The notes under the pieces were generated by a model. The model was not told the origin of the DNA and did no database searches. It saw nothing but the letters and a program-made list of their open reading frames with translations. A stretch of DNA of 64,000 bases from Eledone cirrhosa (taxonomy: Eukaryota), in NCBI GenBank assembly GCA_964016885.1, contig OZ024755.1:36642001-36706000 (forward strand), written 5' to 3'. The position numbers and the translations under genes are program-made. Numbering within the stretch: position 1 is the stretch's first letter; the number at the start of each line of letters is the position of its first letter. Shown here piece after piece: positions 12,545-63,095 of this stretch.

Positions 12545-12599
12545 ACTGCCTGAAGAGGTCACAGCCAAAGATGGCTGTCACTGAAATATATATAGCAGT
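12545..12599 (+). ncRNA. Minimal type-I hammerhead ribozyme
   Basis: ACTGC-CTGAAGA-GGT C ACAGCCA aaga TGGCTGT C ACT-GAAA-TATATA-TA/GCAGT, followed by AATAAA. Stem I has 5 bp and all core nucleotides are present. Confidence 0.85.
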
Positions 12600-12649
12600 A
12601 ATAAACGATGCTAAATTTTAATCATTTGACTTTTATTTAACTTTATTTT

Positions 12650-15600
12650 ATGTGTATATATATATATACATATATATATATATGTGTATATATATATATA
12701 TATATACATATATATATATATGTGTATATATATATATATATATATATATATATATATATATATATATATATGTGTATATATATATATATATATATATATA
12801 TATATATATATATGTGTATATATATATATATATATATATATATATATATATGTATATATGTATATATATATATATACATATATGTGTATATATATATATA
12901 TACATATATATATATATATATGTATATATATATATATACATATATGTGTATATATATATATATACATATATATATATATATATGTGTATATATATATACA
13001 TACATATATATATATATATATGTGTATATATATATACATATATATATATATATATATATATATATGTGTATATATATATACATATATATATATATATATA
13101 TACATATATATATATATGTGTATATATATATATACATATATATATATATGTGTATACATATATATATATATACATGTGTATATATATATATACATGTGTA
13201 TATATATATATATACATATATATATATATATATATATACATGTGTATATATATATACATATATAAACATGTGTATATATATATACATATATAAACATGTG
13301 TATATATATATACATATATAAACATGTGTATATATATATATACATATATAAACATGTGTATATATATATATACATATATAAACATGTGTATATATATATA
13401 CATATATAAACATGTGTATATATATATACATATATAAACGTGTATATATATATATATATACATACATATATATATATATATATATACATACATATATATA
13501 CATATATATATACATATATATACATACATATATATACATATATATATACATATATATACATACATATATATACATATGTATATACATACATATATATACA
13601 TACATATACATATGTATATACATACATATACATATGTATATATATATATGTATATACATTTGTATATATATATCTATACATATGTATATACGTATGTATA
13701 AATATATATGTATATACATATATATACACATACATATATATATATACACATACATATATATACACATACATATATACACATATATATATATATATACACA
13801 TATATATATATATATACACATATATATATATATCTATACACATATATATATATACACACATATATATATATATACACATATATATATATATCTATACACA
13901 TATATATATATACACACATATATATATATATCTATATCTATACATATATATATATACACACATATATATATATATCTATATCTATACATATATATATATA
14001 CACACATATATATATATATACACACATATATGTGTATATATATATATGTGTATATATGCATACATATACATATACACATGTATATATATATATATACATA
14101 TATATATACACATGCATAGATATAGATATGTATATATATATACACATATATATATACACATGCATAGATATAGATATGTATATATATATATACATATCTA
14201 TATATATATATATACATATATATATATATATATACATATATATATATATACATATGTATATATATATATATACACATGCATAGATATACATATGTATATA
14301 TACACATATGTATATATATATATACATATATCTACATATATATATATATACACATATATATATATATATATACATATATCTACATATATATATATATACA
14401 CATATATATATATATATCTATACACATATATATATATATATATCTATACACATATATATATATATATCTATACACATATATATATATATCTATACACATA
14501 TATATCTATATCTATACACATATATATCTATATCTATACACATATATATCTATATCTATACACATATATATATATACACACATATATATATACACATATA
14601 TATATATATATGTATACATATACACATGTATATATATATATACATATATATATACACATGCATAGATATAGATATGTATATATATATATACATATACACA
14701 TGTATATATATATACATATATATATACACATGCATAGATATAGATATGTATATATATATATACATATGTATATATATACATATGTATATATATATATATA
14801 TATATATATATACATATGTACATGTATATATATATATATACATATGTATATATATATATATACACATGCATAGATATACATATGTATATATACACATATG
14901 TATATATATACATATGTATATATATACATATGTATATATACACATATGTATATATATACATATGTATATATATACATATGTATATATATACATATGTATA
15001 TATATACATATGTATATATATATATATACATATGAACATGTATATACATATGTACATGTATATATACATATGTACATGTATATATACATATGTATATATA
15101 TATATATACATATACATATATATAAACATATATATATATACACATACATATATATATATATATATATATATACACATACATATATATATATATACATATA
15201 TATATATACATAAGCATATATATATATATGCATATATATATACATAAGCATATATATATATATGCATATATATATATATATACACATATATATACATATG
15301 CATATATATACATATGCATATATATATACATATGCATATATATACATATGCATATATATATACATATGCATATATATACATATGCATTCATATACATATG
15401 TATATATATATATGTATATATATGCATACATATACATATGTATATATATACATACATATACATATGTATATATATGCATACATATACACATGTATATATA
15501 CACACATACATATGTATATATACTGTATATATATATATATATATATTATATATACAGTATATATATATATATACACACGTGTAAAAATAGGTTTATGTAC

Positions 15601-16135
15601 ATACATATATATATATACAAATATATATATATATATACATATATATATATTTATATATATATTATACAGATATATATTATACATATATATCTATCTATTA
15701 TACATATATATATATATATACATATATTATACATATATATATATTATACATATATATCTATCTATTATATATATATATATATATATATATTATACATATA
15801 TATCTATCTATTATATATATATATATATATATATTATACATATATATATATCTATTATATATATATATATATATATTATACATATATATATATATATTAT
15901 ACATATATATCTATCTATTATATATATATATATATATATATATATATTATACATATATATCTATCTATTATATATATATATATATATATATTATACATAT
16001 ATATCTATCTATTATATATATACATATATATCTATATATACATATATATCTATCTATTATATATATACATATATATCTATATATACATATATATCTATCT
16101 ATTATATATATACATATATATCTATATATACATAT
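12650..16135. repeat. Giant compound (TA)n microsatellite, about 3.5 kb
   Basis: Directly visible. Confidence 0.98.
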
Positions 16136-16277
16136 AGGAAAATATTAAACCCCGACGGCTATTTCTGGAAATAGCCGTCGGGGTTTAACATTTTCCTATT
16201 ACCCACTCTACTACGCTAAGTATTGAGTACTCTGGTGCGTTATGGTCCATCTGGTTCCTTACCACACTTCCTTCGTT
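16134..16277 (+). mobile_element. PLE-type pLTR 3' relic with 32-bp fold-back; same family as 63551-63636
   Basis: Hairpin 16134-16165/16168-16199; 16192-16277 is about 90% identical to the reverse complement of 63551-63636; TA runs on both sides. Confidence 0.7.
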
Positions 16278-16286
16278 ATATATATA

Positions 16287-16600
16287 ACCAAAGATTAGTA
16301 TGTTTCGTTGAATACAATTTTACAATAGATTAGAAGCACTCAACAAAAAAGTTTTCCTGGAGTTTTTAATATTATTCAAAATATTAACAAATGAAAAATA
16401 TTCTCATAATCAAAATATATACTTCATTATATATATTTCAAAGGTACTGTGTTGTTTTTTCAGTACGTCCTCATCAGACAAAATACATGATTTGATATAT
16501 GATATACCGCTACGGTCTTGATTATACAATTCCCGTATTGGTAGTGAGAATATTTCATTTTTTAATATATTGAATAATATATACGTATAAAAATAGGTAT
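16287..16600 (-). mobile_element. PLE-type pLTR relic carrying the hammerhead at 16417-16488
   Basis: Hammerhead, TTGAGTGC motif and a 3' end in a TA run; 5' boundary approximate. Confidence 0.55.
16417..16488 (-). ncRNA. Minimal type-I hammerhead ribozyme
   Basis: Minus strand: ATGTATTTTGT-CTGATGA-GGA C GTACTG..CAGTAC C TTT-GAAA-TATATA-TA/ATGAAGTATAT; 11-pair stem I including G.U pairs. Confidence 0.8.
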
Positions 16601-60587: not shown

Positions 60588-61490
60588 ATTCTTCTTGTGA
60601 CGCTAAACTCCGCCAGTTGCAAACTGCGCATTAACATGTGGTATCTCTTTCCACAAAGTTCGATCACCAGCAGCAGAGTTCAAAGAGCAAAGATCAAGTC
60701 CAGCCCATAGGTTGACATTATCAAGCCATCGTTTTGGCTGCCGACCTCTGCTTCTCTTTCCAGCCAACCTTCCTTCCAGGCATAACCTACTTACACCACG
60801 AGTTGATCTCTTTATATGACCGTATAGTTTGAGTACTCTTGACTTGACAATTGATGTAATTGGTCTAAGTTTGGTAATGTTGAGCAGCTCACTGATACAG
60901 ATACGGTCGCTGAGACGCTTGCCAGTCATAAGTCTCATGATGTGGTTCTGGAATGTAGAGAGCTTCTGAAGTGCTCCAATTAACACAATCAAGACCGTAA
61001 AACACAACTGGTATCAAAGATCATAATATTCAAATGATTGGAAACTTGTTTTGATGTTAGTACTTCCTTGTTCTTGTTGAAAGCTGCCCAACCCAGAGCG
61101 ATTCGATATTGCGCAGCAACCATTCCATTGTTGTTTGATGATAGTTTGTGACCGAGATATACAAACTCCGTATCTTGAGCAATTTGCTGGTTCTAGATTG
61201 TGAGTTGGAGATTGGCATTGTTTTTATCAGTTGTCATACACTTTGTTTTGGAGATGTTGATGTGTAAGCCAGCCTCCAGCGAATGTTTGGCAGATCAGTT
61301 CTAGAGTGACTCACGATGGCCAGATCGTCTGCATAGCTAAGATTTGATAGGATTTTACCTCCTATTTGATAGCCTGAGGAGCATTCTTCAATTTGGTAGA
61401 TAAATGCAGCAATAACTATACAGAAAAGAAGTGCCGATAGTACACCCCACTGCTTAACTCACTTCAAGATGTCTATACAGCGTGTAGTTT
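60588..61490 (-). mobile_element. RTE family A LINE, longest copy with RT remnant
   Basis: LSNLSYADDLAI, INISKTK, FVYLG, followed by the family A 3' end. Confidence 0.85.
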
Positions 61491-61689
61491 CCAAGTCTGT
61501 TTTGGTTATGTAAATAGGCTACCATGCCAAGTTCAAATATTCCTGCTGATAAGAATTCTTCTAGACATTTCCATTAACTTATATGGAATGATCCGACGAT
61601 AAAATAGGAAGCAAAATATTCCCCAATGTTATTGCTGAGTTAATGGGAAACAGAAGTCCATTAAATCAACCGCAATGTGTTACGGCTTT

Positions 61690-61980
61690 TTATTTTATTG
61701 ACCTTTTAAGGCAGGATTTGAACTCATAACTCTCTGTGCGGTAAAGCGTGGTCCGTCGCTCTACCGATTCTGCCAATTCGCCGCCCGTCCTGTTAATAAC
61801 GGTTTCTTATATAGGCACAAGGCAAGCAATTTTGGGGGAGGGGAAAGTCGATTAAATCGATCCCAGTGCGTGACTGGTACTTTATTTTATCGACCCCGTA
61901 AAGATGAAAGGCAAAGTTAACTTCGGTGGGATTTGAACTCAGATCACAAAGGGCCGTAACTCTATGCTCTGCCAATCCAG
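61690..61980 (-). mobile_element. Nin-domain SINE copies (older subfamily)
   Basis: A box, B box and central domain. Confidence 0.75.
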
Positions 61981-62839
61981 CGTCCTTTGCTCGTTCTGCT
62001 AACACCAGTTGGTATTATTACTTTCAAATATTTAAAGAGACTGTCAATATTTCCATTCATGTTTAATGGAGACCGGGGGTGATTGAACCTCACCAATGTA
62101 CACGTTTCAAACGAAATAAATATACTAACAACAAAAAATAAACAACAAATAGTTTGAATATAAGGAAATATATGGTGACTTCATCTATATGAAAAGTCTT
62201 AAATGAAAATTAGTCCCATTTAAATCATCTTCGAAGGGAAGTAACTAAAAAATATGCTTGACTTTTTTCCTTCCCTTGGACTGTTGTTCATTTAAAATCC
62301 ATATAATAAAAGGGATATAGATATATATGTGTATAAGCATTTCTTCTAACTTTAATTTTATACCTAATTGTGTATGGTTGACGGTATATTTAATTGATTT
62401 CCACGTGCAGTTGAAATGTTGGGTAAATATTCTATGGCGGTCGGCCGCGAAGAGATTGCTGTCGTTTATTTATCTACTATTTCTTCATAGGTGCCTTTTA
62501 ATCTTATAGCCTGGTCTAATTGATTTTTTGTGTGGTTAATTATGCTAATTGGGAGAGGAAATGGTGTATATATTATCAAATGATTCTATGGACATACTTT
62601 ATAGTATATATATATATATATATATTGTTATATTTGGGGAGGGTCATATTTGCGTAATATTGCCAGAATTAATAACAGAACACACTCACTGTTTCAGTGA
62701 CACACGATTTCATATAAAAAACCTCGCAAAACTAATTCATCGCCGCTATATATATATATATATATATATATATATATATATATATATTATAATGAAATGA
62801 CAGGAGGCTGGATTTGTGTAAATCCTTGAAAGGTTTATT

Positions 62840-62897
62840 ATACTATGATCATTTCAATGACCGGGTTCCGTATGAATCCGGTGATATCATCAGGTAT
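62840..62897 (-). ncRNA. Minimal type-I hammerhead ribozyme (inverted copy)
   Basis: Exact reverse complement of 63038-63095. Confidence 0.72.
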
Positions 62898-63037
62898 TCG
62901 AAATATAATACGTGAATGTAATAGATAAACTCGAGGGCCACCGGCTGAGGTTGAAGGAGCAGAATAGCGGTCGCCCTCGGGTCCTCGATTTTCAGCCCCA
63001 TGGATTTTATCTATTACATTCACGTATTATATTTCGA

Positions 63038-63095
63038 ATACCTGATGATATCACCGGATTCATACGGAACCCGGTCATTGAAATGATCATAGTAT
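63038..63095 (+). ncRNA. Minimal type-I hammerhead ribozyme (right arm of inverted repeat)
   Basis: ATAC-CTGATGA-TAT C ACCGG..CCGGT C ATT-GAAA-TGATCA-TA/GTAT, followed by AATAAA; first stem II pair is U.U. Confidence 0.75.

Follow-up and report, generated by a model that had tools for sequence, protein, structure and literature searches.

Four hammerhead motifs in the window

The window considered here is a 64,000-nucleotide (nt) stretch of the genome of Eledone cirrhosa (assembly GCA_964016885.1, contig OZ024755.1, positions 36,642,001 to 36,706,000 of the forward strand), and it carries four hammerhead motifs, namely, HH1, HH2, HH3, and an identical inverted copy of HH3 (Table 1). Judged from sequence, these are real type I hammerhead motifs, derived from terminal repeats that belong to one Hydra-clade lineage of Penelope-like elements (PLEs). 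In all four, three positions separate CUGA(U/A)GA from the C.C opposition; a longer helix, GAAA, and a palindrome of 6 nt come next, and UA and a closing stem I complete the motif. The type I core elements CUGANGA, GAAA, and UH are present in order, and their columns are invariant in the alignment. The motif pattern matches the window four times, compared with a mean of 0.00 and a maximum of 0 over 100 shuffles, and a covariance model trained on 29 sequences, three of them from the window, recovers the same four motifs together with one weak match (E 0.35) and no other convincing copy. The initial annotation had placed hammerheads at these positions and had given them a C.C opposition, a 6-nt palindrome, and an AUA cleavage triplet, all of which are indeed there. 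In scans of HH1 and HH3 against Rfam, no hammerhead family was listed at E<=10 (HH2 was not scanned alone), and among the 150 of 548 matches listed from a scan of the whole window, all were microsatellite-driven microRNA models.

The helix of three pairs that was said to separate the core from the C.C is present in each motif, but it is imperfect: it starts with a U.U in HH3 and contains two G.U pairs in HH2 and one in HH1. The position of the HH1 G.U is G-C in 20 of 25 HH1-family copies, and CpG decay may be its source. The stems had also been taken to be unrelated in sequence. In fact, those of all window motifs align, HH1 and HH3 have UCAC...GUCA in common, and the motifs are related by descent; a convergent origin of HH1, HH2, and HH3 was rejected, given that the motifs align and that their open reading frames (ORFs) group together.

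The window copies lie in short remnants (about 220 nt for HH1 and about 240 nt for HH2), and for none of them is there a same-strand neighbor with a matching palindrome. They are truncated solo or fold-back remnants and, lacking such a partner nearby, are probably inert. A transcript across the HH3 insertion is predicted to form a long fold-back duplex (about -280 kcal/mol) in which both motifs are buried.

Table 1. Hammerhead motifs of the window and the element remnants in which they lie
Feature	Positions	Strand	Details
HH1 type I hammerhead	12545..12599	+	Stem I 5 base pairs (bp); core CUGAAGA at 12550; inner helix, C.C, 7-bp outer helix, GAAA, palindrome UAUAUA; predicted cut after 12594
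HH2 type I hammerhead	16417..16488	-	Core at 16477; C.C; palindrome UAUAUA; predicted cut after 16428; several G.U pairs, a weakened copy
HH3 type I hammerhead	63038..63095	+	Stem I 4 bp; core at 63042; basal U.U mismatch; C.C at 63052/63076; palindrome UGAUCA; predicted cut after 63091
Identical inverted copy of HH3	62840..62897	-	Core at 62893
3' end of an HH1-family Hydra-type PLE, 5' truncated, stopping at a (TA)n tract	12428..12645	+	Limits from a pile-up of BLAST starts and ends
Short 3'-end remnant of an HH2-family PLE	16309..16545 (limits approximate)	-	Limits from a pile-up of BLAST starts and ends
Single PLE-type insertion between (TA)n tracts	62781..63296		Inverted copy 62781-62932 joined to sense copy 62929-63296; fragment of a unit of about 2 kb with no detectable ORF

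A conserved mismatch amid changing pairs

As read from the aligned motifs, the trait that sets these hammerheads apart is a C opposite a pyrimidine (C.Y) at the fourth position of stem II, in which the 5' C is kept and the 3' base is C or U. A hammerhead pattern that left stem II free but fixed the shape of helix III matched the 3.0-Gb genome 103,093 times, compared with 156 times for a reversed control. On this same backbone, C.C accounted for 72,275 matches (70%), C.U for 22,188 (22%), and a 5' base other than C for 5,075; by subtraction, about 3,555 matches have C opposite a purine, a figure that is approximate since variable gaps match in several ways. In total, C.Y is found in about 92% of matches and the 5' C in 95%, and no family was seen with a C-G closure. 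Enrichment of the mismatch across the genome had been set beforehand as the test, and it is borne out, with the proviso that the C.C once thought fixed is one of two states. The U before GAAA, also described as fixed, is not: C stands there in 13,534 of the 72,275 C.C copies (19%). Most of the non-C matches listed are due to point mutations within the same families, to nested registers, or to chance. The match counts mirror amplified families rather than selection on every copy.

At the level of families, we grouped 310 distinct motifs into 42 clusters, taken from loci that were picked from pattern and similarity matches and hence form a non-random sample. The 6-nt palindrome, of the form YRNNYR, occurs in 17 of the 42 clusters; 11 of these have C.C, 2 have C.U, and 4 are exceptions, three of which are one- or two-member clusters from non-C picks, while one (L205) looks real and has a paired stem. 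Of the other 25 hammerhead clusters found in these loci, 20 have a standard pair at pair 4. These other clusters (about two dozen, in loci L031-L369) have helix III inserts of 2, 4, 5, 7, 8, or 9 nt and in some cases stem II regions of about 50 nt. The AUA site is usual in the subtype rather than fixed, with 3 of the 17 palindrome clusters ending in UC instead of UA. The HH3 family, which has no ORF, keeps C.C in 28 of 29 copies.

Among 29 chosen representatives, pair 4 is never standard, yet 12 of 15 scored pairs have changed on both sides, including pair 2 (in 12 of the 29) and pair 3 (in 13). Helix cells are paired in 87.4% of cases, compared with 69.5% after shuffling and 23-51% in slid controls, values that come from related sequences and do not amount to a probability. 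The palindrome is paired in 99.1% of cells, and 3 of its 4 pairs covary. The basal pair of stem II, unpaired in 8 of the 29, may be U.U, G.U, A-U, or G-C, and stem I varies from 4 to 8 bp between families; further pairs can often be added to it beyond a bulge or internal loop, which comes 4, 5, or 8 pairs from the core according to the family. No fixed Watson-Crick partner for the C was found in the flanks, nor, within 20 nt on either side in the 17 clusters, any invariant flank position or conserved G that could pair with it.

Four contig sets aligned to HH3 contained no variant at a frequency of at least 5% at either C, and three of the four had very low depth, so that they are uninformative on other species. 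Outside this genome, pattern scans gave chance-like results, with 119 stretches from 3 of 64 parts of the metagenome set, 4 of which had partial stem II pairing and none a stem I of at least 3 bp, and with 1 of 117 viral-contig matches passing the structure filter, compared with 234 of 280 matches from the genome itself. No Hydra ORF loci were found in metagenomes or viral contigs.

Host elements

What carries these motifs? In the sampled loci, motifs of the subtype flank ORFs with a reverse-transcriptase (RT) region and a C-terminal endonuclease-like region. The arrangement is tandem in L038, L043, L049, and L122, and an inverted copy lies on the 5' side in L031, L033, and L354; the order in L354 is inverted copy, ORF, sense copy. 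In 6 of 30 loci, HH1-family copies follow a Hydra-type ORF on its downstream side at a distance of about 1.3-1.6 kb; in L132 and L134, HH2-family copies are found 1.6-2.0 kb downstream of an endonuclease region of Hydra type. Linkage to Hydra-type RT-endonuclease ORFs is thus seen for HH1, HH2, and three other families, and is not shown for the HH3 family. The ORF beside an HH2 motif in L133 was dropped as a host because it shares no DNA with the HH2-linked endonuclease, and those near HH3 in L032 and L350 were dropped because they belong to other families. The suggested connection to PLEs and the palindromic helix III were both correct.

The 821-amino-acid ORF of L033, and likewise that of L049, has the features diagnostic of the Hydra clade (RW(K), DKT, a CxCX5C linker, CxxC, CxH, and a C-terminal endonuclease), as compared by eye with published proteins; the Neptune clade, to which the elements were first tentatively assigned, was dropped in favor of Hydra. 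Searches of the PLE ORFs against Pfam and PDB matched no RT or GIY-YIG model. An insertion at (TA)n with an inverted, 5'-truncated copy is shared by the HH3 insertion of the window, L033, and L354, and the HH1 remnant ends at (TA)n. RT identity between securely linked families is 52-61%, and the linked RTs form one clade (SH-aLRT branch support of 97 in a quick tree that includes one long-branch row; FastTree 0.998). This clade is separate from another Hydra-type lineage in the same genome, and it also holds four unassigned ORFs and two database proteins, one of them named from Argonauta hians. The trees come from quick searches and contain database homologs only, with no published Hydra RTs. 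C.Y is an inherited trait that is confined, as far as seen, to one Hydra-type PLE lineage.

Could the mismatch simply be an accident of descent, carried along without selection? All carriers come from one PLE lineage, and the copy counts reflect a few amplified families, as an accident would have it. However, the pairs on either side of the mismatch (pairs 2 and 3) have turned over repeatedly across about 40-50% RT divergence while the C has stayed unchanged, and we consider this explanation already disfavored and very unlikely.

The C.U family, represented at L033:3129-5591, is a very young Hydra-type PLE family: all 150 scored matches, of 34,806 candidates, are 98-100% identical, and many of its 821-amino-acid ORFs are intact. 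Hydra elements appear to be far more common in this genome than the single octopus family of Craig et al. suggests.

The HH3 family

The longest HH3-family copies are units of 1,981 and 1,987 nt with a hammerhead at each end, 94.8% identical to one another (L358:5649-7753 and L359:1700-4100). A tblastn search of these units with the Hydra-type proteins from this analysis gave no match at E<=0.05. The unit body has 1,621 candidate matches genome-wide, and the copies seen are truncated and dispersed, with only two of 30 loci showing a partial tandem. As far as the portions of the reports covered here go, animal non-LTR (long terminal repeat) retrozymes are non-coding units with a type I hammerhead that have been proposed to be PLE derivatives (PMC7229834; bioRxiv 10.64898/2026.07.22.740005). 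The HH3 unit resembles them in being non-coding and in carrying such a hammerhead in each repeat, but it does not form short tandem units of a few hundred nucleotides. According to the same portions, retrozyme units measure 220-390 bp, compared with about 2 kb for HH3, which is also without the loop 1-loop 2 signature (PMC7229834; bioRxiv 10.64898/2026.07.22.740005).

Comparison with published hammerheads

The comparisons in this and the next section draw on extracted text and excerpts of the cited papers. The Hydra-clade PLEs of Craig et al. (2021, PMC8557442) are like the present elements in their RW, DKT, CxCX5C linker, and CxxC/CxH motifs, their (TA)n targets and inverted 5' copies, and their type I hammerhead near the 3' end, and the inverted-plus-sense layout of the HH3 insertion matches the PLE layout given in their Fig. 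2 legend. Among their 26 Hydra rows, U stands opposite U at the stem II base in 14, and A is at position 17 in 12. Their helix III insert, however, is 7-8 nt and starts with C, rather than being a 6-nt YRNNYR palindrome, and their A17 triplets are GUA. The one octopus family in that study, Hydra-1_oBim, has a continuous stem II, unlike the C.Y subtype. By eye, C.Y at pair 4 is in none of the 26 rows in the extracted text (PMC8557442). The 7-nt-insert clusters of the present genome resemble the published Hydra-1_oBim motif. A basal U.U has also been described for hammerheads beyond that table, and in the axolotl half of 126,247 hammerhead motifs have it (PMC7229834; bioRxiv 10.64898/2026.07.22.740005).

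The PLE hammerheads of Cervera and De la Peña (2014, PMC4209133) have a long helix II, a short helix I, and a palindromic helix III, with low activity and proposed cleavage as dimers, and the subtype has these three helix features in common with them. Their consensus has a bulged base followed by G10.1-C11.1, where the subtype has a variable basal pair. The extracted text of their 56 aligned motifs, examined by eye, contains no C.C or C.U at pair 4; isolated mismatches in it are U.U (Clonorchis 2) and C.A (Strongylocentrotus 1). The combination of U-GAAA, a 6-nt palindrome, and an AUA site does occur there, in the Drosophila willistoni PLE hammerhead (PMC4209133). The PLE hammerheads of Lünse, Weinberg, and Breaker (2017), as summarized in PMC6765202, have a short palindromic stem III, like the subtype, and cleave as dimers.

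The definition of the subtype by C.C, U-GAAA, and AUA survives in part: C.Y defines it and is missing from the two alignments compared, whereas U-GAAA and AUA vary here and, with the palindrome, were already published together. No description of a C.Y mismatch surfaced in full-text literature searches, which did not cover figures, bioRxiv supplements, or the Lünse 2017 alignment. The C.Y subtype is thus apparently undescribed, a provisional statement given that this alignment (the largest relevant one), figures, and bioRxiv supplements lay outside the comparison.

Proposed dimer cleavage and a candidate contact site

In total, we lean slightly toward a joint reading in which these are the terminal-repeat hammerheads of one Hydra-clade lineage, which would likely cut only as pairs, and in which the unpaired stem II C likely serves as a base-specific contact, with the element's own protein as the most plausible partner. 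Two copies in a tandem transcript would build helix III by pairing along the 8-nt palindrome (A15.1 to U16.1), cutting would follow after position 17, and the element RNA would be trimmed. By analogy with PLE hammerheads already described, we hold this dimer pairing and cutting to be quite probable. The predicted helix III pairing probability of the monomer is below 0.02 in all 8 folded motifs, and the 8-mers are self-complementary, which fits the published PLE dimer model.

What, then, would a fixed mismatch contribute? One suggestion is a brake, in which the mismatch weakens stem II so that scattered copies spare host transcripts. In folding calculations, stem II would gain 5.0-6.7 kcal/mol in stability if the mismatch were closed as C-G, and predicted pairing in the three inner pairs of the window copies is only 0.00-0.21. 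Moreover, AUA is a natural but slow triplet, the slowest of four tested in a viroid hammerhead (PMC1636495). Yet any mismatch would weaken the stem, and here it is a 5' C that is fixed; solo folding is already disfavored by the palindromic helix III; and the other common hammerhead families of the genome have a paired stem II. A brake is, to our minds, distinctly unlikely. A base-specific contact is favored over mere weakening because the 5' C is fixed, its partner is C or U, and other families do without the mismatch.

If there is a contact, is it with RNA or with protein? In a canonical hammerhead, loop 2 begins near three pairs from the core, which is where C.Y sits. The mismatch might therefore be an RNA-structural element, that is, a narrow pyrimidine mismatch or metal site that packs the long stem II against stem I and replaces the loop 1-loop 2 contact; C.C and C.U are the only family states seen, and a conserved loop 2 is absent from the subtype motifs. 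Such packing sits less easily with the varying length of stem I across families and with flanks that offer neither an invariant position nor a conserved G to pair with the C. We judge it unlikely, if well short of negligible. The element's protein is favored as the contact because no fixed RNA partner was found in the flanks. Among the roles considered, the one we would entertain seriously while still giving it less than even odds is that the RT-endonuclease reads the C.Y site and thereby assists the folding of the weak inner helix and the core.

We speculate, more doubtfully, that C.Y is a lineage-specific recognition site by which a Hydra-type RT-endonuclease activates the hammerhead of its own element; cutting would then occur only in protein-bound RNA, and non-coding derivatives would have to keep the site for mobilization. 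The favored contact with the element's protein has a precedent: in the portions of the report covered here, a Poseidon PLE hammerhead required added PLE protein in order to cut, and its position is within the region proposed to bind that protein (PMC11167929).

Several points weigh against the joint reading. As far as the same portions of that report go, insertion in vitro did not need cleavage of the Poseidon hammerhead, and none of the RNA-seq reads had an end at the cleavage site (PMC11167929). The cleavage and binding roles are drawn from sequence, in which nothing separates a protein contact from an RNA-structural role, and the Hydra assignment, with no Pfam or PDB match to an RT or GIY-YIG model, depends on motifs compared by eye with published proteins. 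The RT clade also contains ORFs whose hammerhead was not seen. Finally, the families are related, so that they provide about a dozen independent tests at most, and the 29 representatives were chosen from within the subtype.

The question on which this mismatch bears is what PLE hammerheads do and why they cut so poorly unaided. A conserved unpaired base amid covarying pairs is a precise handle for mutagenesis, and in this genome both states, C.C and C.U, occur naturally, alongside control families that lack the mismatch and a recently amplified family whose ORFs are intact. If a protein switch acting through C.Y were true, it would provide a defined RNA determinant of a protein-activated natural hammerhead; if the base is only a structural tweak, it is a minor addition to hammerhead diversity.

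Other features of the window

Kilobase-long TA/TG microsatellite arrays flank HH1 on both sides (7050-15520), and they cause spurious Rfam microRNA matches as well as long false ORFs. Probable exons of a SMYD-type SET-domain gene lie at 30834-31235 and 29150-29347 (both -), with a weak match to SMYD3 (E of about 0.09) and with NHSC and post-SET cysteine motifs that we take to mark a SET domain of this type. A 330-codon open frame without a Pfam match at 5413-6405 (+) looks like a transposon remnant, and a related fragment lies just past the window (L050). Two copies of another short repeat, each beside a near-perfect hairpin, are found at 16134-16286 and 63542-63722; this is a common dispersed repeat in the sampled loci.

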